Shown one piece after another: positions 10,181-45,839 of a DNA stretch of 64,000 nucleotides. Position 1 is the stretch's first letter. Each line of letters begins with the position of its first letter. Origin of the DNA: a virus. Position numbers and translations under genes: made by a program. The DNA lies in the IMG/VR virus record IMGVR_UViG_3300021399_000006, positions 78,128 through 142,127 of that record; one strand, written 5' to 3'. The notes beneath the pieces were generated by a model. The model had not been told where the DNA came from. It did not search any database and saw only the letters and a program-made list of their open reading frames with translations.

Positions 10181-10253
10181 AGTATTTTCTCCCTTTATTC
10201 TTATATTATAATTTTATCATAAAAAAAATAAAAATGCAAAATCGAAATAAAAA

Positions 10254-10289
10254 AGACCAAGACCTAATTTTAAATCAGAATCTTGGTCT
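10254..10289 (-). terminator. Hairpin terminator downstream of the RecJ-like gene
   Basis: 9-bp inverted repeat agaccaaga/tcttggtct, followed on the minus strand by a T-rich tract. Confidence 0.35.
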
Positions 10290-10306
10290 AGCGCGCGCCC
10301 AGCAGA

Positions 10307-12103
10307 TTAAAATACAAAATTGCCTCGGTCTATAACCTAATAGTCCTATATAAAAATTTGAGGAGTTACATTTCCCATCCATTCGTTTTGATGTGCTCTC
10401 CCTATTATATTTAATTCATAATAACCAGAAGTATTCTGTAACATATAACATTCTTCATCAGTTGCTTTAAATTTAATCAATGATATACCTTGCGGAGTAG
10501 TTATTTTTAAAGTGTTATTTTTCTTAACATAAACCGTTACCATATCTGAAGTTACTTTTAAATGTTCAATACATATGAATGGTTCATCTATATCTTTTCC
10601 CCATAAATCCTACATATTAGCAATAGTAAGTATATCATTTGGATTTATATTATTTCCTTGATAAATATAATCTACATAATACATTGCCTAATTAGGCATA
10701 TCTTTTAATAATTCATCTGTTTTTTCTATAAAGGCGGGAATGTTTTTTTGTAATATACCTAAACCAAATGCACCAGGGTGACCTACCTAATACATTGTCA
10801 AACCTGTTTCCGCGCATATACTTTTAAAATCATTTATTCCTACTTTATCACATCCTCTTGCGGAACCTTGATATGATATAGTAGTATATTCATTTACTTC
10901 TTTATAAGGTGGGCAGGGTTCCTTTTCTATAACCTTTGTTAATAAACACGTAGGTCGTTGATATTTAGCCATAATTTTATTTGCAATTAAACCTGCAATA
11001 TTCTTATCAACTTGTCCAGGTTCAAGTAAGAATAATAATACTTTATGGTCTAAAAGATGTTGTTCCTATATCATTCTTTCTATTGTTTGTAACCCTGCCT
11101 CTTGTGCTTTTGTCTGCCTGTTTTTTACATTAGTAACAATTCGCATAACTTGCTAAACAAGCTGTTCTTGCTAACCTAAGAAGTGTCCTCTTTTGGTAGA
11201 AGGTAACATTTTAAACGCTTTATGTTTTAACATAGATTCAAATGTTAATGTTTTTTCTTCTTTTGTTCCACTCCTACAAATAGCATTAATATATGGGGCT
11301 ACATAAAAAGCTACACTCATATGATTAATTTTATTATTCATAGAAAAAGCATTTTTCTCGGATAAATTTACAAAGAATGGATTTTTAAGATTATGAAATC
11401 CTTTATTAATAAGATGTTTTGTTTCAATAGATAGCATAGACATCATATCAGCGCAGTTGCCCAATGCCATTAAATCAGTATAATTATTAGCATTGTTAAT
11501 TTTTAATAAAGAGTCAAGATAACGGCAAAATTGCCAAACAACACCAGCCCCGCTAAAATCTTTATTAGGATAATTTGATAGTTGATTATTTATAACAATA
11601 GCATCAGGATTCTATACGTCACAAATATGATGATCTAAAATAATTGTACTAATACCATTTTGTTTTAAACGAGTGCATTCTTCTATATCATTACTTCCTG
11701 CATCTGGAATAATAACAAGAGAGTATATTTTAGCATTAATTATCCAATCTATATGGTCATTTAATCCATGTTGTTTTCCATCATGTACACGATAATCTAA
11801 ATTAGTTTCTACCCAGGCGGGAAACAGGTCATGTAGGTAATTAATCAAGATTGCAGAACTAGTAAAACCATCAGCATCACTATCAACAATAACTAAACAT
11901 CTATTATTATTTGAGATAGTTTTACTTAAAAGTGCAGCCGCCGCACTTAATTTTTCTTTATCTAATTCCATAAAAGAATTTATATCGTTGTCTGTTGTAT
12001 TAAGATAATGATATACGTTATTATAAGGGACTCCTCTATTAGTTAGAATTTGTTCTATTGTTGAATAACTCTAATTAATAGGATTTATTAATTGATATTT
12101 CAT
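10307..12103 (-). CDS. recJ: RecJ-like DHH-family ssDNA exonuclease, about 599 codons with about 11 in-frame TAG
   Basis: ORF-track pieces 10346..10543, 10787..10972, 11171..11470 and 11612..11971 are all in one frame, joined only by TAG. Motifs are DSDADGFTSSAIL, DHHICDV and a DHHA1-like C-terminus. Ends at TAA 10307-10309. Confidence 0.65.
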
Positions 12104-18450: not shown

Positions 18451-19311
18451 TTACTGATTAAACAAAATTAATTCTTCGGCATAAGGTAAAGTTTTCACCC
18501 AATTACAAAAGTCTTGACTCCATTCAGTAAGTTTATGATTTTTACGTTGTCCATACATATTTCGTAATGTTTCATAGTTTGCTGTCCAAGTTCTAGTTTG
18601 TAGCCATCCCTCAGGAAGCCAACGTATAAGTTCTTTCCAATATTTTTTATCTTTTGTTTCAAGATACCGTTTTCTAAGAGTTTCACATATATCAATAATA
18701 TAATCTATACAGTCATCGGTGGTATCATCAATAGTATATGGTTCACCATTAAAAATAACTATATCTGAATTATAATCTCCCATTTCAAAACAATCTTTAG
18801 TAATAGGAGTACTAGCTAACTTATGCATTGTTGATGTTGAATTAGCAACTGTTGATACTTTATAAGTATCTGCCTCCTTCCACCAATACAACGGTGCAGT
18901 TATGTCAACAGAAACAAAAATTTGACGAAGAAATTTTCTATCACTTGAGCCAGCTTTAATCATACGTTGCGCTAAATCTAAATCTTTTGGACCTAATAGA
19001 GCTAAATCAAAAATTGTCGTTCCATTATCATCTTCTGATAAAACACTATTTTTTATAAGCCAATCTATATAGCTATCTTCTAATCTACAGTATTCAAGGC
19101 TTCCTTCTTCGATTACTTTTTGATTATTTTTTTCTGCTTTAATATTATAATCAGTTATCCACTCATGCGCAACTAAAAGAGTTGCTTCATAACTATACTC
19201 TTCAGGATACATTCCAAAACCACTATCACTTTTTCCCCAACTTTCAAGAGGATTACGTAAACCGCGGAAAGCACCTTCGAAATTCATTACTTTAGTATTC
19301 TCAAATTTCAT
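18451..19311 (-). CDS. Hypothetical protein (286 aa)
   Basis: ORF track; start overlaps the stop of the GIY-YIG gene (TAATG). Confidence 0.35.
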   Translation of the reverse strand: MKFENTKVMNFEGAFRGLRNPLESWGKSDSGFGMYPEEYSYEATLLVAHEWITDYNIKAEKNNQKVIEEGSLEYCRLEDSYIDWLIKNSVLSEDDNGTTIFDLALLGPKDLDLAQRMIKAGSSDRKFLRQIFVSVDITAPLYWWKEADTYKVSTVANSTSTMHKLASTPITKDCFEMGDYNSDIVIFNGEPYTIDDTTDDCIDYIIDICETLRKRYLETKDKKYWKELIRWLPEGWLQTRTWTANYETLRNMYGQRKNHKLTEWSQDFCNWVKTLPYAEELILFNQ

Positions 19312-20267
19312 TATTTATTTCCTTTCGTTACGTTTAAACCTACTTTATTTGATTGATACATCTAAATCCAAAAACGTTCTTTTTCATTTAACTTATCACG
19401 AGTACATTTCTAAAGAATTTCAAAAGTGAAATTCCATACGCCATATTTCTGCATATTATTATAAAGTTTATTCGTTGCGGAAGCATCTATACCAAGACCA
19501 CATTTTACATGCTGTTTCCATCTATCTGCAACATTAACACTTTGTCCAATATATATGTCTTCAGTTTGTTTATTAGTAATTTTATAAATTCCACAAACAG
19601 AACCACTACCTAATACACGATTACATAAATCAGTAGTAGGTTTCATTACAAAAGCAGACCAAATAATTTTAGAAACAATAGAAGGGTCATTAAGCTCTTT
19701 TTTCCATTCTTGAAGATGTGTAATATCATTAATTTGTTTTTCAGATATTTTTATACGATAAAAAGATATTTTATCCTATTCTTCTTGCTATCTAAGACGT
19801 GCGGCGGTCGCAGCCTAATATACAGATTTAAGCTAGACCAAACTCGATTGAATCTAATTCCGCTATCTCTATATTTTACCTATCTATTGATATAATTGAG
19901 ATTTCATTTCTATCTACTCTTGACGGATAGACTAATGAAAATCCTAACGATGTTTTATTCGTTGCTCTTCATAGTTTTGTTCTATTTGCTATAGTTCATC
20001 TTGACGAGTTTTCTTTCTAGTATCTAATATCGTTTGTTCCTATTGTTGTAACTGTTTTAACTATAAAAGTTTATTTTGTTTATTAATAATCTACTGATTT
20101 AAATTAGATATTTTAATCTATCTATTTCTTATCTATATTTTTATATTCTATTTTTCTTTTTCTAATGTTATTTCTTGCTATTTTAATTGCCGCACCTTAT
20201 TAAATAAATAATAAGCAAATATAAGCACTATAAAAAAGAAAATTATTAAGACTGCTCGTCCTAGCAT
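19311..20267 (-). CDS. Membrane-anchored, Q-rich coiled-coil, GIY-YIG nuclease fusion protein, about 318 codons with about 21 in-frame TAG
   Basis: The frame stays open from ATG 20265-20267 to TAA 19311-19313 with no TAA or TGA. It reads MLGRAVLIIFFFIVLIFAYYLF (TM helix), then about 200 aa of heptad-like Q/E/K-rich sequence in which most Q are TAG (e.g. KQLQQQEQTILDTRKK), then a GIY-YIG domain (GIYKITNK...YIGQS...RWKQH...NEKERFWI). Confidence 0.55.
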
Positions 20268-20629: not shown

Positions 20630-20700
20630 TTTGTTTTCTCCTTTTATTAAAAAAATTAAATTGTTTTATTTATAATTAATTATATATATTAATATAATTA

Positions 20701-20877
20701 TTATATTCCTTTTAAAGATTCTCGGATAATATCATTAATTTCTAAAATTTCTGCTGTTGTAAGCTATTTCGTGATTTTAGATATTTCTTGATATTTTTTT
20801 ACTTTAGACATATTTTTGTCTTTAGATATAGCATAAAACTGACTTGCTATACTTCTAAGTTCTTCTTTATTTTTCAT
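20701..20877 (-). CDS. Small hypothetical protein (58 aa, 1 in-frame TAG)
   Basis: MKNKEELRSIASQFYAISKDKNMSKVKKYQEISKITK(Q)LTTAEILEINDIIRESLKGI. Confidence 0.25.
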
Positions 20878-20899
20878 AATTTATTATACCAAAAATTTT

Positions 20900-25445: not shown

Positions 25446-25781
25446 TTATTTATTTTCCTTAATTTTTTTAAATGCATATTCCAATTCCTCTTTTGTTGAA
25501 GGATTTATATCTGGAACTTTAGCAAGCATATCTACGATTCTTTCAATTTCTTTTTTATTTGGCTTAAAATCAGGGCATGTTCTATCTTTAAGAGTTTTAA
25601 TATAACTATCAGGATTACAATCTATTAATCCATGAATATGACAATTTTGGGAACGATAAGCACAAAACCATTCATAGTAAACATGCTCACATTTTTTACA
25701 ATAATCATTAAAAAATCTTTCACTCAACATTATAAGTGGCCTCCTTACTGTGCTCTTTAATAAAATTCTTTCTCGGAACAA
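25446..25781 (-). CDS. Cys/His-rich hypothetical protein (111 aa)
   Basis: ORF track; start overlaps the end of the topoisomerase B-subunit gene. Confidence 0.25.
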   Translation of the reverse strand: MFRERILLKSTVRRPLIMLSERFFNDYCKKCEHVYYEWFCAYRSQNCHIHGLIDCNPDSYIKTLKDRTCPDFKPNKKEIERIVDMLAKVPDINPSTKEELEYAFKKIKENK

Positions 25782-27615
25782 TAGCCGTGCCCATCAAATC
25801 ATCAAATAATTTTTCCGTTTCTTCACTATCATCAATCGTAATTTGTTTAATAATTCTATTATTAGGATTCGTAAGAGTCTCTTCTATTTGTTCAACGTCC
25901 ATCTCTCCTAATCCTTTCATACGATTAACTTGATATTTTCCCGTATAGGTTTTTCTAAATGCTTCAAGGTCATCATCGTTCTTTAAATATTTATAACCTT
26001 TATTTCCACCCAGAGTAATCTTATAAAGAGGCGGGACTCCAGCGTAAATAATACCGTCATAAATCAATTGAGGACAAAAATTCCAGATAAAAGTATAAAA
26101 TAGGTTTTTAATATGAGCACCATCAACGTCAGCATCACTCATAATAATAATTTTACCATAGCGGAGTTCATCACGGTTATATGTAACCCGCATTGTTTTT
26201 GTATCAATCTTTAAACCAAACGCTTCAATCATGGTCATAATTTCAGCATTTTTTTGAATCTTATCTAAGGTAGCTTTTTGTGTGTTAAGGATTTTACCAC
26301 GGACGGGCATTACAGCTTGAAATTCATTATTACGTGCCGTTTTTAAACCACCTGCCGCACTATTTCCCTCAACAATATAAATTTCACATTTTTCTCTATC
26401 TTCGCTATAGCAATCCGCAAGTTTACTATCAAATTTTAAAGCCTTTTCTTTTTTCTTTCCTTGCTCTCTTGCTTTTTCTCTTGCCTTCTTAGCAGCTTCT
26501 CTTGCTTTTTTAGCATTAATAGCTTTTTCTGCAATAAGTTTAATTTCTTTTTCATTATTAGCTAACCAATATTGAAGATTTTCAGTTAAAGCTACATTAA
26601 AAGGCTTCATTTCAATTTTAGTAATACGAGTTTTAACTTGTGCATCATATGATATATTTGGAGCGGTAATATTAAAAACAATGTACATACCTTCCTGTAT
26701 ATCATCACCAGTTAAATTTTCATCTGTAGATTTAAGCCATTTCTTTTCTTTAAAGAATTTATTAAATTCACGAGTAATAATAGATTTTACCTGAGTGATA
26801 TGTTGTCCTGTCTCGGTTAAACCTGTATTGACATATGGAACAATAGTAGGAGAGTAATTAGATGTATAGGTAAGAACCATATCCATTTTATTCTTACCTT
26901 CTACAAAACTCATATCAAATCTATTGTTAATAAGTTCTTTATTGCCTACTGCGGCATCGACTAAATCATTTAAGCCTTTTTCGGATACATAATCATATAT
27001 CTTACCATTTTCATTTAAATGAAGTGTTAGTCCTGGACATAGACAAGAAATAGTTTTAAGTAATAAATGAACTCTATTACTTTCTACTTCCGTATGAGTA
27101 AAAAATTCTTCCGAAGGTTGCCATTCTACCAGTGTACCATGTACACCACCTGCTCCCGCAGTTCTATTTTGAAATACACCTTCTTCAAAATAGATTTCTT
27201 CCCATTCATTATCTCTCATAGTTTTGACTCTTAACCAATGACTTAGAAAGTTTGTGATTTTAGAGCCAATACCATATGAACCTAAACTTGTTCCTTCATA
27301 GGTTCCATCTTCCCTATATTTACCAGAAGTATTAAGAACATCAAAAGAAGCCTGAAGAATTGTCTCTCCATCTTCTCTAAAGCTGTTACAGATAAAACCT
27401 TGTCCATAATCTCGAACAGAAACTGTATCTCCGATTATTGTTATATCAATACGATTACCATTTCCAAGACGAAATTCATCGACTGCATTAGAAATAATTT
27501 CTACTAATAATTGCGTTGAATAAGTTGTATCTCCTGCATAAACTCCAGGGCGTAATCGTGTAAATTCTAATGGAGAAAGACTTTCAATACTATCTTCATT
27601 ATAAAGTTTTGCCAT
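25720..27615 (-). CDS. Type II topoisomerase, GyrB-like ATPase/TOPRIM subunit (T4 gp39-like)
   Basis: GHKL ATPase N-terminus; TOPRIM IVEGNSAAGG...IIMSDADVDGAHI. Confidence 0.8.
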   Translation of the reverse strand: MAKLYNEDSIESLSPLEFTRLRPGVYAGDTTYSTQLLVEIISNAVDEFRLGNGNRIDITIIGDTVSVRDYGQGFICNSFREDGETILQASFDVLNTSGKYREDGTYEGTSLGSYGIGSKITNFLSHWLRVKTMRDNEWEEIYFEEGVFQNRTAGAGGVHGTLVEWQPSEEFFTHTEVESNRVHLLLKTISCLCPGLTLHLNENGKIYDYVSEKGLNDLVDAAVGNKELINNRFDMSFVEGKNKMDMVLTYTSNYSPTIVPYVNTGLTETGQHITQVKSIITREFNKFFKEKKWLKSTDENLTGDDIQEGMYIVFNITAPNISYDAQVKTRITKIEMKPFNVALTENLQYWLANNEKEIKLIAEKAINAKKAREAAKKAREKAREQGKKKEKALKFDSKLADCYSEDREKCEIYIVEGNSAAGGLKTARNNEFQAVMPVRGKILNTQKATLDKIQKNAEIMTMIEAFGLKIDTKTMRVTYNRDELRYGKIIIMSDADVDGAHIKNLFYTFIWNFCPQLIYDGIIYAGVPPLYKITLGGNKGYKYLKNDDDLEAFRKTYTGKYQVNRMKGLGEMDVEQIEETLTNPNNRIIKQITIDDSEETEKLFDDLMGTAIVPRKNFIKEHSKEATYNVE

Positions 27616-27649
27616 AAATTATTTCTCCTTTTATATTTTTTCTATAAAT

Positions 27650-27678
27650 ATTATAGCAAAATTTTTGTAAAATTGCAA
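27650..27678 (-). promoter_or_regulatory. Consensus sigma70-type promoter for the topoisomerase operon
   Basis: On the minus strand: TTGCAA, 17 nt, TATAAT, then an AAGGAG RBS and the ATG at 27615. Confidence 0.5.
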
Positions 27679-27715
27679 TTCATATCAAGTCTTTACCTTT
27701 AATGATACATTGTAC

Positions 27716-27744
27716 TTGACTTTTCAAAAATTTTTCGCTATAAT
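27716..27744 (+). promoter_or_regulatory. Perfect consensus promoter (TTGACT, 17 nt, TATAAT) on the plus strand, divergent from the topoisomerase promoter
   Basis: ttgact tttcaaaaatttttcgc tataat. Confidence 0.5.
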
Positions 27745-27750
27745 ATAAAA

Positions 27751-27848
27751 AAGAAAAATAAATGACAAAAGTGGGTAGAAACGTAATATATATATCTATA
27801 GACAAAAATAACGGTGTGTAGTATTAAATACTACACACCTTTTTTATT
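27751..27848 (+). ncRNA. Candidate small RNA of about 95 nt, running from the predicted TSS to an intrinsic terminator
   Basis: A consensus promoter lies immediately upstream and there is no SD. The only ORF is about 20 codons. It ends in the hairpin GGTGTGTAGTA-ttaaa-TACTACACACC followed by T6. Confidence 0.35.
27813..27846. terminator. Bidirectional intrinsic terminator
   Basis: 11-bp perfect stem plus T6. It terminates the plus-strand sRNA and lies just past the endolysin stop on the minus strand. Confidence 0.55.
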
Positions 27849-29319
27849 ATATTGCTTGGACATATCTGTAATTAATAAAACCATAAATTTTATTATCTAT
27901 ACGAATATAATACCATGTTGTGCCATTGCTAGCTTGTATACTATCACAGACCTATACTATTTTATTCTTATAAATAATTGGAATACTCTTTAAAGTTTTA
28001 TATTCAACACCTGCCCAACTTCTTACGTATAAAGCATTTGCAGTAACTTTAGCTTTAAAATAATTATCACGGGCGGGAGATGCTTTACCTGTTCTAGTAA
28101 ATGTAGTTTTAGATGTTGCTAATAAAATTTTATCATTATTAGTGTTTTTTGCTGGAGTTACCTTCTATTCTGTTTTAGGTGTAGTTTCCGCCTTCGCATA
28201 TTTAGGAATAGCATAACCGCGAATGTTACCATTAGCTACTTTTAAAGAGCGACGCGCAACTACTCCGCTATTTCCTGTATTTCCTTCTATTGTAGTAATA
28301 GTATTGCCCGAAACTTTTTCAACAATACCAATATGATCTGCAAAACCATCATTTGGTTGAGTACCATCATCCCAGTTATATGTTATAATCCATCCTGGCT
28401 GAGGAGTAACTGAACCATTTTCCTACCATATACCCGCTTTCTTAAATAATTGAATATGTCTTTCAACGCCACATTCTGTTCCACCAATTAAATCGACAGC
28501 GTTATTTTTAATAAATGCCGCAGATAATGTTGTATCACAATAGTCATCAGTATATTTAACTTTATAGCCAACCGCCAAAGGGGTATGACTATTATATAAA
28601 TCAATTATATCTCTATGAGTTTGTTTAGCTTTACTCTTGCCAATCCAACCCTACATAGTTTTTATAATATCTTTTGCGGTAGTTCCTTTAGTTGGAATAG
28701 GAGTTGTAATAGGTCGTTCCTATACTTCTGCTCCATAAAAATAATTCATATCAACATTTCCAGAAATGCCGTTTACTTTTCCTTTGCTTGTATATTGTTG
28801 ATAAGTACAAGGAAAATGAGGTTCAGGGTTATAATCTGCTAACCATACAATATATTTTTTAATAGTTGCCGCATCGTACCAATTTTTATAATAATCTTGA
28901 TTTAAATAAAAACCAGCTTTGTAACCTTTACTTTTGACGTAATCGCAAAAGGCATTTGTAAATTCGATACAATTTGTTTTAGTTAAATAAACCTTTTTAT
29001 TTTTTGCGCTTTTTACGGTATCGTATTCAAAGTCATAAAATATAATAATATCTTTTCCTAGACCTGCGGCCTCCACATTTTTAATACAACTTTTTGCTTC
29101 TTCTACGGCATCGTTTTTATTTAAAGCATAAGCAAAATGATAAACTCCATGAATAGGGATTCCCGCCTATTTAAATTTTTTTACATTAGCGATAAAATAT
29201 TTATCAATTGTTTTTCTGTATCCCTATCTAATAATAACAAAATCAATTCCTGATGTTTTTACTTTCTTAGCGTCAATATTACCTTGCCACTAAGAAATAT
29301 CAATACCTTTTAATGCCAT
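27847..29319 (-). CDS. Multidomain endolysin: GH25 muramidase + CHAP/NlpC-P60-like + SH3b, about 490 codons with about 8 in-frame TAG
   Basis: N-terminus MALKGIDIS(Q)WQGNIDAKKVKTSGIDFVIIR(Q)GY is GH25-like (ORF-track 28720..29076 is in frame). The middle carries ...DHIGIVEKVSGNTITTIEGNT (CHAP/NlpC-like). The C-terminus WAGVEYKT...WYYIRIDNKIYGFINYRYV is SH3b-like. All pieces are joined only through TAG. Confidence 0.65.
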
Positions 29320-29351
29320 ATTATCTCCTTTCAAAAAAAGAAGCGGTAGGA

Positions 29352-29570
29352 TTAACCTACCGCTTCTTCAGAATCTTTAACTTCTGGAAGTCCAGCTAAA
29401 CTAGTCATAATAGAAAGGAATCCTGCTACGCAAGCAACTGAACCAACATATGTCCAGTTAACTTCATTAATTGCGGCACCTACAGTTATCATAGAAACAA
29501 AAGACTGTGCGAAAGTCTTAATGGCTCTAATACCTGCCGCCTTAATCCATTTCTTTTGTTTTTCACTCAT
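29352..29570 (-). CDS. Holin (phi LC3-type, 2 TM)
   Basis: 72 aa, two hydrophobic segments and a charged C-terminus, immediately upstream of the endolysin. Confidence 0.5.
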   Translation of the reverse strand: MSEKQKKWIKAAGIRAIKTFAQSFVSMITVGAAINEVNWTYVGSVACVAGFLSIMTSLAGLPEVKDSEEAVG

Positions 29571-29625
29571 AATAAAAATACCTCCTTATTATATATAAAT
29601 ATATAAAAAAGAGGTATTTAACTTT

Positions 29626-30075
29626 TTACTTTTTTGACCTTTTTTCTTTTATTTGTTGCAAATGTTTTTTATTATCTTCAAGAGCACGATTAATTGATTC
29701 AATCCACCCTTCTAGATAATTAATTCTTTTTTTATGGTATTCAGTCATAAAATAAAATCTTCTTTCAATAAGAAGTTGTGCCCATGCAAAAGCCTGATAT
29801 GCAGAATATTTATCTAAAGTATGTATTAAATCTTTTTGAATACTTGGAAGAACATGAAGAATAATTCTCTCTCGTTTTAATTCATCTTTGTAGGCTTTTC
29901 GCACAGCTTTCATTTCAGCTATACGCAAACCGGTATATTTACTTTGAATTTCTTTATCATCATGATGAACTTTAGAAACTCCAGTATATGTTCCTCTTTT
30001 GGTTTTTACTGTAACAATAGATCTACCTGACACAGGGTCAAAAGCAGAATTAGAAAGTTTTACTCTTAGTTGCAT
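29626..30075 (-). CDS. Hypothetical protein (149 aa)
   Basis: ORF track. Confidence 0.3.
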   Translation of the reverse strand: MQLRVKLSNSAFDPVSGRSIVTVKTKRGTYTGVSKVHHDDKEIQSKYTGLRIAEMKAVRKAYKDELKRERIILHVLPSIQKDLIHTLDKYSAYQAFAWAQLLIERRFYFMTEYHKKRINYLEGWIESINRALEDNKKHLQQIKEKRSKK

Positions 30076-30174
30076 CTTTATTTCCTTTCTTTTTTATAAC
30101 GTAGTCTCTGATAATGACAATAGCCATTTCTACAAAAAGAGTTCCTACAATTCCTACAAGTACAGGATTTACAA

Positions 30175-30720
30175 TCATTCTTTCTTCTCCTTATATTTAT
30201 CAATATCTTTAATTATTTGCTCTATAGATACAGGATAACAATTATGAGCGTCCATTGCTACATTATAAATACTATATTGTCCAAACTCAAATTTATTAGA
30301 ACTATGAGTATGTCCAGATAAATTCCAGAAGAAACGCTCTTCCTCAAAATTACCTACAAGAGTAGGATAATGAGAAAGATAAAAAATTTTCTTTTTATTG
30401 TATTTATAAATTGAAGCAAAACCAAGATATGTCATACCGTATTCTGTTTGATATTTATTAAGTTTATTATTTGTATCATGGTTCCCCCAAATAATAAATT
30501 TTTCACCATTTAATACTTTATAAACACGATTCCATTCTTTTTCGTTTCCGCTCATACAAAGGTCACCAAGAATGTATACAGTATCTTCTGGAGTTACAAC
30601 ACTGTTCCATCTTTTTAAGATTTCTGTATCATGTTCTTCAATTGAAGAAAAACCGCGCGGACGCCAGATAAAATCCTTATCGTGTCCGATATGTGGGTCT
30701 GCGGTAAAATAAACAGCCAT
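30175..30720 (-). CDS. Calcineurin-like metallophosphoesterase (candidate 2',3'-cyclic/3'-phosphoesterase of an RNA-repair cassette)
   Basis: Motifs DPHIGHD, GDLCMSGNE, GNHD, GHTH. Confidence 0.65.
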   Translation of the reverse strand: MAVYFTADPHIGHDKDFIWRPRGFSSIEEHDTEILKRWNSVVTPEDTVYILGDLCMSGNEKEWNRVYKVLNGEKFIIWGNHDTNNKLNKYQTEYGMTYLGFASIYKYNKKKIFYLSHYPTLVGNFEEERFFWNLSGHTHSSNKFEFGQYSIYNVAMDAHNCYPVSIEQIIKDIDKYKEKKE

Positions 30721-30721
30721 A

Positions 30722-31222
30722 TTATCTCCTTTCTAAAAGATTTATTGTTTTTCCATCAAAAGTATATATATAATCAAAAGGTTCATTATAAGTTGGCGGT
30801 TCCATCCTAAGATACATATTATGTATTTCGTGCGGAGGCACAAAGGTGCGGCCGCCCTTTCTTGTTTCATTACGTTCAAGACACGTTTCCAAAGGAAGGT
30901 TCATATATACACCTATTACGGTTACTTTTGTTCTATCTATATGAAGATTATGAAAAAGAGCATTACGACTTTTTCTATTTAAATGTGTTGCATCTGCAAT
31001 AACATTATAACCTTCTTTTAAATTTTCATTAATTTGTTTAATAAATTCTTTATAAACTTGTTTTTCTTTTGCAAAATAATTATCTGTATCAGAAAGAAAG
31101 GCGAATCTTATCCCATCTCTTGAAATATGGATAGTATTATCATTCATAATAGCATATCTTGCATAAGTAGATTTTCCTGAACCAGGAATACCCATCATAA
31201 TATATAATTTATTTTTTTCCAT
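30722..31222 (-). CDS. P-loop polynucleotide 5'-kinase-like protein
   Basis: MMGIPGSGKSTYA Walker A. The size and position between the phosphoesterase and the RNA ligase suggest a Pnk kinase-domain analogue. Confidence 0.55.
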   Translation of the reverse strand: MEKNKLYIMMGIPGSGKSTYARYAIMNDNTIHISRDGIRFAFLSDTDNYFAKEKQVYKEFIKQINENLKEGYNVIADATHLNRKSRNALFHNLHIDRTKVTVIGVYMNLPLETCLERNETRKGGRTFVPPHEIHNMYLRMEPPTYNEPFDYIYTFDGKTINLLERR

Positions 31223-31268
31223 TTTTTCTCCAAAACGAGGGAGAGATAATCTCTCCCTCTATTATTTA

Positions 31269-41999: not shown

Positions 42000-44588
42000 A
42001 TGAATTACGGTAGTTTTTACGGAGGTCGCCGCGGCGCTTCCTTTGTGATAGTAAAAAGTTATCCTGATATTATAAGTATGACTAATGAATTTGGGAGAGG
42101 CCCAAATTTTAATGAAGTCGAATTTGATGAGTATGTTATTATTAATACTATTAATAAAAATCATCCAGATAACGGAAAAATTTTTAGACGTGGATATGAT
42201 TATAATAGCGGAAGAAAAATTTCAGGATATAGAGCTTTCTGGGAAAAGGATGGAACTGAATATGAAATTATTAATGGAATTCCTTACGATGAAAGCGGAA
42301 ATGAAATAGAGTATGATTCTGACATAAGTATATATTTAAATGCACGATATTAGCCAGATATTGATATAGATGCAAAAGGAGCACAGTATATTGGTACTAT
42401 TGTTGGACCTTCTGGAAGAGCGCCATTAGTAGAAATGGATACGTATGACTCTGTAATGGAGAAGTCCGCAGAAGAAGGTTTTTAGATACAAACTTCTCAT
42501 GGAGATTATACTCTTAGTAATGATAGTTTAATGCCAGGTAAATATTAGGAAAATGGGGTTCCTAAATATAACGATAAGATTCAATGGTTTTGTGCATCAT
42601 TAAGAAATGATAAAAATGATGATAGTATTGCTTATATAGGTTTTAAAACGCCTTATTTAGTAATAGATTTTTTAACAGAACAAATTTCTCCTTATGATAA
42701 TCAAGGTGTTTATATGGATGCTTCTGCGGCAACAAGAATTGAAGATTCTACTACAGAAGGACATCCTTTTTATGAGAAATGGAGACTTTCAATTCCAAAT
42801 GGTATACAAGGGGATAGTTTAAATAATTTAAGAATAATTACTTTTGATGACCCTACTTTATATAATAGTGAATTAAACACTTATACAAGAATTTATATTT
42901 CTTAGGATTTCTATTATTTTTACAATACTGCTGAAGAAAGATTTTTAGGATGTTCTGAAAATGAAGGTGTTTAGATTGAGTCAGAAGGATCTATAACTAT
43001 TAATCAACAAAATGATTATATTACAGTTTATCCTAATACAAAAATTATTGTATATGATAGATTTTCTTATGAAGAAAGAAAAAATCCTACTTAGCCTGAA
43101 AAAACCTATTTCGTAGGAATATATAATCAAATAAAACAAAATGGTTTTATTATTGATGACTATGGAAATATCCATATTGATTTTACAGACGGAACCTCAC
43201 TTGATAAATAGCGTTTTTTAAAAATCATTAAGAACGTGGCTTTCGAAAAAAATGATAATAACGAATTATATATGAATATAATTTTTAATACATTGAAATA
43301 GAATGAAGAGGGAGAAGAGGAAGAACAGTAGTTTGATTCTGTATCATTCCCAATTAAAATTATAGAAGATATAACATTAGATGATGATAGTGTTTTAAAT
43401 ATTTCTTTAACAGATAATTCTACTCTTAGTTTTCCTTTTAAAACAATTTCTAATATAGTGACAGATTAGAATGGAATAACCATAAATTATAGTACAAAGG
43501 ACAATAGCGGGGCTAATGAAAGTGTTTTTCTTCCTATGTCATGGGTTTCTGATTTACAACTTTTAGAAGACGGTACTGTTCAAATTCGTAGAAATAATTT
43601 TGTTAACAGTGAGAGTTGGAGGAATTTAGAAAATAAATTAAGATGGATTACTGGAGTTGATTATGATTCAGGTACGGGTGATATTACGTTAAATTTTAAT
43701 AATGGAAAGCCAGCTACTTATAAGTTAAAAATAGTTAATAGTATTGGTTTTAATGAAGAAACTAATAGTTTAGTAGTTAGATATAATACAGATGTTCCTG
43801 GATCAGAACCAACTCAAATTCGATTAACGGGAAAATTAATCACTAAGATGTCATATGATGAAATCACAGGACAAATTGTTGTGACATATACAGGTGAGAA
43901 CAACACAGAGACATTTGATTTAGGGAAAGTACCAACAAGTTTTATTTTTAATAATAGTAATCCAAATGGTGATTCTATTTTACGTATAAAACATGGTGAA
44001 GAGGATATTTTAACTAGCAGCCCTATTACATCTATATATGATATGAAAATAACTCCTGGACATCATTTAGCAGTATTATTTAATGATGCTAACTTACGTG
44101 AATCAATAAAAAGTAGTGGAAAAGGATTAACATTAACGTCTTCACGAGACAATATTTCATATGATGGTTGGTTAGACCTGGGTAGCGTATTTGTAGATTC
44201 TGGTATTTTTATTGGTACAAATTTAACTTATGAAGATTTAGAATTAACTGCGGCGACCGCTACGATTGATGATGTAGTTAATGAACTTAATGAAAGACTT
44301 CCTGGTGGATTAGGAGGAGACGGTGATAATAGAGATTATTTAAAAGAAAAAATTGTTACCGTTGGAGAAAATAATCAAAAGAAAGAATTTTATGGTTTTG
44401 ATTATGATTATAAAGCAGATTCTCCTGAAGAATATAAAGGATGGTATTATCTAGGTTCTATTGAAAGTGCAGCTGCCGCAACCAAATCAAGCTGTCGTAT
44501 GGGAAGCGCTGATGATCAATCTCGATAGGGACAAGAAATTGAGACTGAAGGTCTATACTTTTTAACAGAAGAATGGCAGGAGGGATAA
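42000..44588 (+). CDS. Structural protein D (862 codons, about 12 TAG), tail-fibre/baseplate-like
   Basis: Fragments 42000..42353, 42714..42905 and 43536..44528 are in one frame. The frame continues through TAG 44526-28 to TAA 44586-88. Confidence 0.55.
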
Positions 44589-44592
44589 TCTA

Positions 44593-44895
44593 ATGAATGG
44601 TTATCAAGGACAAATACGGGCAAGAGACCAAAGTTAGGGACATTTTTCTCCAGAACAAGATATATTTACTTTAATAAGTGAATAGTGTCAAAAAGGAACG
44701 TCAGGAGAAGGAATTATTAGTTTATCAAAATTTGGTATCTTTGCTCCTGAAGGAACTATTATATTATTAAATAATAAAGAAATAAAAATAGGAAAAACAA
44801 AAATTTATTAGATAGATGAAGTTAATATTACTTCAATAAAATTTTTGGAAAATTCTTCAAATGAGGTTATTATAGATTTTGTTGTATCCTATTGA
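44593..44895 (+). CDS. Small structural-module protein E (100 codons, 3 TAG)
   Basis: Ends at TGA, showing that TGA is still a stop. Confidence 0.4.
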
Positions 44896-45017
44896 TTGGT
44901 CAAAATGTAATAATAGTTTTAATTATATTTTTAATAAATAATGAAATGATTTAAAGGTATTAGCTACTATAAAATGGTAGTTAATACCTTTTTTAGTATA
45001 AAAATGAGGTTTCTTTG

Positions 45018-45839
45018 ATGGATAAATTAAAATATATACGTGTTCAGAAAAAAGATGGTACTTATGGAGAAAAAATTCCTGTCGCTGTGAACAGTAATAA
45101 TATTCGTATGACCAATGGAGATGACCTTCAAACTACTATTAATACAGTAGAAGAAAACATATAGGGAGTTAATAACGATATATATAGCGCTCAGATAGAT
45201 CAAGACGGAATAATTTATCCTTCTTTAAGAGATAGAATTAATACTTTAGCAACTGATATAGAAAAAGAAAAATCTTTAATGATAATATTGTCTACTGATG
45301 TTCAAATGGTAACAACAGATAGTAAAGGTAATTTTGGAGATTATTCTAATTGTGAATGTGAAGTATATGTTTATTTTGGCGGAGAAGATATAACAAATAG
45401 TCCTGATTTAGTTTGGAGTATAAAAATTCCAAGTACTGTTATTGCGGTATGGGATGCTACTTAGCATAAAATTAAAGTTTCATACCTTAGTAATAATTAT
45501 TCTGCTATATAGATAAATGTAACTTATAAAAATGATTTATCGGTAAAAAAGAATTTTTTAATTAAAAAAGTTTTTAATGGAACGTCTCCTATTACTGTAG
45601 AAATAGAATCTAGCGCAGGTACAATTTTTAAAAATCATAACGTAAGTACTTTTTTAACTGCTATTGTAAAACAAGATAATGAAGATATTTCAGATAAAGT
45701 TACTAATTTTCATTGGATAAAATATGATGAAGAAGGTAATGAAGATACTTCATGGAGTCGTTTTAATACTCAAACTATTTAGATTTCTCCTGCGGATTTA
45801 TTTAGTAAAGCAATTTTTAAATGTGAAATATCTTTATAA
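45018..45839 (+). CDS. Structural-module protein F (273 codons, 4 TAG)
   Basis: Fragment 45279..45464 is in frame. Ends at TAA 45837-39. Confidence 0.5.

Follow-up and report, generated by a model that had tools for sequence, protein, structure and literature searches.

A promoter without a gene faces the lysis cassette of a TAG-recoded gut phage: a candidate convergent transcription unit

Why would a phage keep a strong promoter that has no gene to transcribe? The question is raised by a short intergenic gap in a 64,000-nucleotide (nt) stretch of viral DNA, positions 78,128 to 142,127 of the IMG/VR record IMGVR_UViG_3300021399_000006, which we call the window. Up to about position 36130 every gene is on the minus strand, and positions 27616-27846 separate the 3' end of an endolysin gene from the start of a gyrB-like topoisomerase gene. 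This gap holds two promoters. One serves the gyrB operon, while the other, which we term the orphan promoter, points in the opposite direction and faces the end of the lysis cassette. A reading of the letters made without database searches (the sequence-only reading) had taken the orphan promoter to make a phage small RNA (sRNA), possibly antisense to read-through endolysin transcripts, or a leader. We have compared this locus with its relatives and favor, at about even chances, a cis-acting convergent early transcription unit that would restrain or insulate the lysis cassette, by a mechanism that we infer.

The sequence-only reading described two back-to-back promoters of perfect consensus. 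Both are indeed present, with 17-nt spacers and TATAAT elements, yet the matches are 10 and 11 of 12 hexamer positions. The gyrB-operon promoter (minus strand, 27650-27678; TTGCAA-17-TGcTATAAT, with the -35 at 27678-27673 and the -10 at 27655-27650) matches at 10/12 and has an extended -10. It lies 35 nt upstream of the start codon at 27615, with a GGAG Shine-Dalgarno sequence at 27628-27625, and it is correctly placed before the gyrB/gyrA operon. The assignment of one promoter to a topoisomerase operon was right, as Pfam identifies the downstream genes as a gyrB-like and gyrA-like type IIA pair. The orphan promoter (plus strand, 27716-27744; TTGACT-17-TATAAT, with the -35 at 27716-27721 and the -10 at 27739-27744) matches at 11/12, is convergent to the lysis cassette and carries in its spacer the A-tract/T-tract signature of the early promoters of this phage group. 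Back to back, the two -35 hexamers are separated by 37 base pairs (bp). An 11/12 match alone is not beyond chance: sites of at least this quality occur 7 times on both strands of the window compared to 6.1±2.5 times in shuffled sequences, and the 2.5-kb neighborhood has 15 promoter-like sites where 14.5 are expected. The case for the orphan promoter rests on the relatives instead. A further minus-strand site (TTGTCA-17-TATTAT, 27768-27740, 10/12) was rejected, since it is the mere complement of the conserved leader and the second subfamily of carriers lacks it.

The comparison covered, in more than 80 loci, the sequence preceding gyrB and that following the lysis genes. At least 17 related loci have a promoter matching 11-12/12 (TTGAC(A/T), 16-17 nt, TATAAT; TACAAT once) that is directed at the cassette terminator. 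Among these carriers gyrB identity ranges from 75 to 98%, and endolysin identity falls to about 33-57%. They comprise the subfamily of the window (loci L001-L006, L008, L082, L083 and L087; predicted RNA about 95 nt), a second subfamily with a different hairpin (L007, L009, L012, L015 and L114; about 90 nt), L017 (about 60 nt) and a short type (L010/L013, L014, L016, L026 and L119, a contig from a metagenome-assembled genome (MAG); about 40-60 nt). Several lineages have a better promoter than the window, with 12/12 matches and a TG. When the window is aligned with L002, L004 and L005, the orphan promoter is conserved at 0.92 identity, the gyrB promoter at 0.95, the A-tract at 0.94 and the hairpin at 0.89, compared with 0.66-0.73 at third positions of codons in the flanking genes and 0.60 in the DNA between the promoters. 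The likeness to gene promoters extends beyond the hexamers. With a matrix built from 57 gene-proximal promoters of these phages, the non-hexamer positions of the orphan promoters score 10.3±1.8 bits (10.4 bits in the window), close to the gene promoters themselves (10.6, leave-one-out mean) and far from other antisense promoter-like matches (1.7). Orphan and gene promoters have in common a spacer with an A-tract and then a T-tract, often a TG, and an A-rich start. These data support the view that both promoters are evolutionarily maintained and of the same class as the gene-proximal promoters of the phage. The orphan promoter is best read as a real early-class promoter for the host RNA polymerase (sigma-A/sigma-70 type) without a gene of its own, with activity and early timing as predictions.

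The arrangement as a whole is confined to this site in the related DNA. We searched 679 kb of related DNA for a strong promoter followed within 110 nt by a terminator and by no gene. On the antisense strand 13 cases were found, all 13 of them the orphan unit, while none of the 97 sense-strand promoters showed this architecture. The ends of other early-strand TAG-rich genes in the window (10307-12103 and 19311-20267) have no such arrangement; at 10181-10306 there is only a terminator followed by a promoter on the same strand.

The transcript from the orphan promoter would end at a hairpin that it shares with the lysis genes. This hairpin (27813-27839; -16.2 kcal/mol) has a stem of 12 bp, one more than the sequence-only reading had counted, with five G-C pairs and a 3-nt loop. 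It is followed on the plus strand by the T6 run at 27840-27845 (TTTTTTAT), as described before, and on the minus strand by GTTATTTTTG at 27812-27803 (tail sequence GTTATTTT). With a G+C stem-loop and a U tract on each strand it has the make-up of a bidirectional Rho-independent terminator. Its position at the endolysin 3' end is confirmed, as the stop codon TAA (27849-27847) directly touches the plus-strand T run. A hairpin is found at this site in every carrier lineage, although the stem sequence differs. Of the eight positions after it, 6-7 are T on the lysis-gene strand in all lineages and 5-7 on the opposite strand, and the A-tract preceding the hairpin is, read on the other strand, the U-tract at which the lysis genes terminate. 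From the positions of promoter and terminator we predict a non-coding plus-strand transcript of 95-96 nt, 27751 to 27845/6, in agreement with the roughly 95 nt proposed earlier. It would consist of an A-rich 5' part, a variable middle, the A-tract, the terminator hairpin and a U6 tail. A leader, the other earlier suggestion, is excluded by the lack of a plus-strand gene downstream.

Three observations connect the unit to the lysis cassette. In L007, L009, L012 and L015 the last gene of the cassette is holin-like, has about 100 codons and contains TAG, and the unit comes after this gene and not after the endolysin. In L082 (IMGVR_UViG_3300001487_000757) the match to the window starts exactly with the first base of the -35 hexamer (27716) and extends over 4.4 kb across the lysis cassette, while the gyrB-side 1.2 kb of the window (26559-27715) is replaced by other sequence. 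Finally, the distance from the orphan to the divergent promoter varies from about 37 to about 100 bp among relatives, and the sequence between is not conserved. Thus, the unit goes with the end of the lysis cassette rather than with the gyrB promoter, and the sequence comparisons show that the orphan promoter is associated exclusively with that end. The mosaic of L082 is an observation in its own right. Compared with window positions 25728-32117, the lysis module with the orphan promoter is 90.6% identical and the 3' half of gyrB 95%. Some 2 kb separating these two parts has been replaced, including a gyrB 5' part that is only 37% identical as protein and an extra TAG-containing open reading frame (ORF); the mosaic may reflect recombination or an insertion within gyrB.

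What, then, could the product of this promoter do? An sRNA acting in trans, by pairing with phage or host mRNAs or by binding a host protein, would make the adjacency to the endolysin incidental. The anatomy is typical of such RNAs (about 95 nt transcribed from a separate promoter, with an A-rich, single-stranded stretch at the 5' end and a Rho-independent terminator and U tail at the other), and the first 30 nt are kept at 0.88 identity within the closest subfamily. However, the body diverges between subfamilies in sequence, length and structure, with RNA lengths from 39 to 97 nt, and in four or five lineages only a 21-26 nt A-rich leader plus the terminator is left, the whole RNA being reduced to about 40-50 nt in some relatives. 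The window RNA folds at -21.1 kcal/mol (z = -3.7), a low energy that is due almost entirely to the terminator, and consensus folding of 14 unit sequences by RNAalifold retains five terminator pairs and no second structure. Folding of the window RNA by itself also predicts a 5' hairpin of 7 bp, which is not conserved. Rfam and ARAGORN, applied to the region and to the window, gave no family at gathering score and no tRNA at the site; the best sensitive Rfam match, to the trpB motif, covers the hairpin alone and reaches 28.3 bits where 59 are required. The conserved 5' bases are generic: ATAAAAAAG... is the usual initial transcribed sequence of gene promoters in these and other AT-rich phages, TATAATATAAAAAAG also occurs before ordinary genes, and 10 of 26 matches to the promoter plus ATAAAAAAGRAAA in IMG/VR precede normal genes. 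Target prediction, which the sequence-only reading had recommended, found no pairing above controls in the 67 translation-initiation regions of the window (best duplex -16.4 kcal/mol; shuffles averaged -17.0, and 58 of 100 were at least as good). A conserved single-stranded seed and conserved targets were not found, the search for targets having covered the window. Taken together, the unconserved body, structure confined to the terminator, generic 5' bases and lack of a duplex signal in the window make a sequence-specific trans-acting sRNA unlikely, and the earlier idea of an sRNA with its own sequence-specific function is not borne out. Far less likely still is a micro-protein. The RNA does contain an ORF of 19 codons (ATG 27762 to TAG 27819-21), contrary to the earlier statement that there is no real ORF, which would encode MTKVGRNVIYISIDKNNGV, 19 amino acids, or 21 if TAG is read as sense. 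Its ATG lies 11 nt after the predicted transcript start and is preceded by a weak purine-rich stretch resembling a Shine-Dalgarno sequence (AAGGA in L005 and L082). However, the ORF is not conserved: L006 has ATA in place of the start codon, while L007, L009, L012, L015, L114 and all the short-type units lack one, L005 has a frame shift, and the peptides align only in stretches whose DNA is under constraint as terminator or promoter-proximal sequence. The comparisons show an RNA body without coding or structural constraint at the sequence level, and this would fit a role for the act of transcription or for plain local complementarity.

Two further explanations need no function of the RNA. The orphan promoter might assist the gyrB promoter, with divergent transcription providing negative supercoiling or local recruitment of polymerase and the RNA being a by-product. 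The back-to-back arrangement with 37 bp between the -35 hexamers would suit this, a divergent early promoter is found in every carrier, and gyrase promoters are known to respond to supercoiling. Against it stand the variable spacing, over a sequence that is the least conserved of the region, and the small extra gene that several relatives have between the divergent promoter and gyrB. Moreover, L082 exchanged its gyrB-side promoter and kept the orphan promoter with the lysis cassette, with the breakpoint exactly at the -35, and many relatives possess the gyrB promoter without an orphan partner. We therefore see little chance for this explanation. Just as improbable, in our judgment, is a functionless promoter-like sequence, be it a chance match in AT-rich DNA or the relic of a lost plus-strand gene that is kept by shared ancestry. 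The chance-level counts in the window and the neighborhood given above would allow it, and a sister group does without the unit. However, hexamers and spacing stay at 11-12/12 where the flanking intergenic DNA can no longer be aligned, and they are conserved above the level of synonymous sites. Several lineages improve on the match of the window, the signature outside the hexamers is that of real gene promoters, and a plus-strand gene is kept at the site in no relative.

Selection keeps a strong early-class promoter, its orientation toward the lysis cassette and the shared hairpin, and this points to an effect in cis. In the convergent-unit reading that we favor, the orphan promoter would fire toward the 3' end of the lysis cassette, and the bidirectional terminator of the cassette would stop transcription and release the non-coding RNA of about 95 nt. 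Two routes could follow. Polymerases from the orphan promoter may meet those leaving the holin-endolysin cassette head-on at the shared hairpin, and the collision would sharpen termination and interfere with transcription of the lysis genes. Alternatively, the short RNA, which is exactly complementary to any read-through transcript and to the terminator region at the 3' end of the lysis mRNA, could pair with the mRNA and expose its end to double-strand-specific cleavage and decay, as phage λ OOP RNA does with cII mRNA. Either route would provide an extra brake or insulator on the lysis genes while the early promoters are active. Both routes, collision and antisense decay, fit the present evidence.

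Several points weigh against this reading. Promoter activity, timing and RNA ends are all predictions. The strong plus-strand terminator of the window means that little antisense transcription should enter the endolysin gene, and only about 42 nt would overlap with a terminated lysis mRNA, most of them tied up in two stable hairpins that have 3-nt loops. What harm would come from transcripts that run on from the lysis cassette into the gyrB operon is hard to see. The sister group mentioned above (L028, L059-L062, L064, L065 and L070) has the same kind of endolysin and hairpin and a best plus-strand match of at most 9/12; its lack of the convergent promoter means that the unit is dispensable. 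The count of 17 loci also overstates the number of independent observations, since the lineages share descent.

Among the closest described systems is the OOP RNA of phage λ (pO, tO), a short, hairpin-terminated antisense RNA from a convergent promoter that overlaps the 3' end of cII and leads to RNase III-dependent decay (PMC5869508 and Krinke & Wulff 1987/1990, cited there). Both are short non-coding phage RNAs from an own promoter that lies downstream of and convergent to a protein gene, both have an intrinsic hairpin end and no ORF, and both are complementary to the 3' end of a neighboring mRNA and presumed to lower the expression of a gene that is costly when expressed at the wrong time (PMC5869508). 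At the sequence level the orphan unit indeed has the convergent promoter, the short terminated transcript and the lack of coding capacity of an OOP-type unit. However, OOP covers 52 nt of the cII coding sequence, whereas the overlap here stops at the endolysin stop and includes only the terminator and 3' untranslated sequence. The predicted RNA ends at 27845/6 and reaches only the redundant second TAA (27846-27844), so the coding 3' end is not complementary to it, and it would overlap in full only with read-through lysis transcripts. The earlier idea of an RNA antisense to endolysin read-through may thus be kept in a narrower cis form, limited to the 3' terminator region and read-through RNA, with no reach into sense codons. 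The target here is a lysis cassette and not a regulator of lysogeny, the host is probably a Gram-positive gut bacterium, homology in sequence or structure is lacking, and any RNase III-dependent effect on the target is hypothetical.

For the collision route a precedent is the report that head-on collision of RNA polymerases is needed to prevent read-through at bidirectional terminators and requires the nascent stem-loop (Ju/Wang/Liu; bioRxiv 10.1101/2022.10.23.513370). As in that model, one hairpin with an A-tract and a T-tract serves both strands and convergent transcription would meet there; the conserved parts are exactly those that the model needs, promoter and stem-loop. In contrast to the described cases, in which both partners are genes, one partner here is a gene-less promoter 20-70 nt from the hairpin that seems to be dedicated to this site. 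A synthetic parallel exists in bacterial-ghost plasmids of the pJHL series, where a convergent promoter downstream of holin/endolysin or gene E suppresses leaky expression of the lysis genes (PMC5362813). The promoter likewise lies downstream of and opposite to the lysis genes, but it is arabinose-inducible, and its antisense transcript crosses the whole gene with no terminator between. In phage T4, gene e (lysozyme) is kept silent early although it lies within early-transcribed DNA, by a translational, intramolecular mechanism (PMC3014915). The logic of silencing a lysis enzyme early is the same, and the holin here has a comparable hairpin over its ribosome-binding site, but T4 has no convergent promoter or antisense RNA. 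The orphan unit probably represents a known kind of control, either a convergent promoter with a bidirectional terminator or an OOP-like cis-antisense unit, and its setting at a stop-codon-recoded lysis cassette is of interest.

If it works as proposed, the unit would act beside three other apparent safety devices, namely TAG recoding, a terminator between holin and endolysin, and the hairpin over the holin ribosome-binding site. The endolysin gene (27847-29319, minus strand; 490 codons; GH25, CHAP and GW domains) has eight in-frame TAG codons and no TAA or TGA before its terminal TAA TAA. It is readable only if TAG is a sense codon, so that standard ORF calling misses it completely. Frames with TAG form a mosaic in the window: the plus-strand block 36285-45839 contains 60 TAG, one ORF of 318 codons has 21, and 19311-20267 and 10307-12103 are examples on the minus strand. 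The genes for gyrB, gyrA, ligase, DNA polymerase III alpha and helicase have none, and a CTA suppressor tRNA was not found in the window. TAG-to-sense recoding in gut phages has been reported to be concentrated in late and lysis genes and was proposed to block premature lysis (bioRxiv 10.1101/2021.08.26.457843; PMC10607447). The window follows this pattern, with TAG in the endolysin and none in the replication genes. In contrast, convergent promoters or antisense RNAs at the lysis cassette are unmentioned in these two papers; the word 'antisense' does not occur in the first, nor 'promoter' in the second. The phAss-1 paper, on another phage with TAG recoding (about 136 kb), likewise says nothing of an endolysin, a topoisomerase or a promoter.

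Upstream of the endolysin lies a membrane protein gene of 72 codons without TAG (29352-29570, minus strand), a putative holin as judged from size, hydrophobicity and position. A 9-bp inverted repeat upstream of its start at 29570 (AAATACCTC at 29619-29611 and GAGGTATTT at 29584-29576, with a 26-nt AT-rich loop) can sequester the holin Shine-Dalgarno sequence, as predicted for transcripts that start further upstream. Its pairing is kept via compensatory or wobble changes in L098, L002, L005 and L014, and it is not present in L004, L010, L017 and L026. The repeat resembles the T4 gene e arrangement, and a late promoter inside the loop is therefore conceivable. At the junction of holin and endolysin (29333-29366, minus strand) an intrinsic-terminator-like hairpin can be read directly from the sequence, with 11 bp including seven G-C pairs (29366-29340) followed by T7. 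The holin stop codon lies in its loop, 14 nt before the endolysin start, and L098, L002, L004, L005, L014 and L026 have hairpins with different stems at this position. A terminator scan misses the hairpin since its stem can extend into the T run. Together with the 3' terminator, the junction hairpin brackets the endolysin gene between two terminators.

One could go further and regard the gene-less promoter as a dedicated, evolved terminator-only unit with the sole task of sending host polymerases, together with an RNA complementary to the hairpin, against the cassette end. It would thereby add to TAG recoding, the internal terminator and the sequestered holin ribosome-binding site a lock on lysis timing at the level of transcription. 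We consider such dedication possible, though rather doubtful. If it were true, the unit would be the natural counterpart of synthetic lysis-gene safety by convergent promoters and a natural test case for programmed polymerase collision. Phages with stop-codon-recoded lysis genes would, provided that the unit works as proposed, add a transcription-level safeguard made of a promoter and a shared terminator. It would also be a compact example of control by convergent promoters or collision with many natural variants, namely RNAs of 40-97 nt, hairpins of differing bidirectional quality and sister phages without the unit. More generally, promoter-terminator pairs without a gene can be under selection in phages, and they should neither be dismissed as noise nor be labeled automatically as sRNA genes.

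The gyrB-like gene (25720-27615, minus strand; Pfam DNA_gyraseB, Toprim and DNA_gyraseB_C; no in-frame TAG) is the first gene of the early operon and is followed by the gyrA-like gene (25442-23106, minus strand; Pfam DNA_topoisoIV). The window has a G+C content of about 30%. The GenBank phage collection gave no DNA match and gyrB protein matches of at most 36% identity, and hence no annotated relative was usable. IMG/VR provided about 200 relatives, mostly contigs of 110-145 kb, and the endolysin alone as a protein query returned only close relatives that the gyrB query had already given. Similar contigs are binned in Bacillota MAGs from ruminant, rabbit and chicken guts. This binning and the Gram-positive type of the endolysin make a sigma-A promoter consensus suitable for the host. 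The strand skew switches at about 36 kb, at the flip of gene orientation. An origin primer as the role of the short RNA was considered and dropped, as the site has no repeats or origin-like features and the skew switch is away from it.

Three other features of the window deserve mention. The 270-nt gap at 20630-20899 was rejected as a second RNA unit, since it holds instead a small ORF of about 58 codons (20700-20875, minus strand) with one in-frame TAG behind a TTGATT-17-TGgTATAAT promoter. An ORF of 833 codons at 33032-35533 (minus strand) matches the shoulder and repeat domains of the major vault protein as well as SPFH/Band 7, an unusual set for a gene in a phage early region. Finally, a tRNA cluster contains Arg-TCT, Arg-ACG, Trp-CCA and an odd tRNA at 62925-62998 (minus strand) that is called the fourth of the cluster. 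The odd one has an 8-nt anticodon loop (UUGCAUAC); its anticodon is 'gcat' according to ARAGORN, and it reaches 39.3 bits with the Rfam tRNA model, which places an insertion in the loop. Possible explanations are a tRNA that reads quadruplets or is unusual in some other way, or else a CAU tRNA carrying one additional base.

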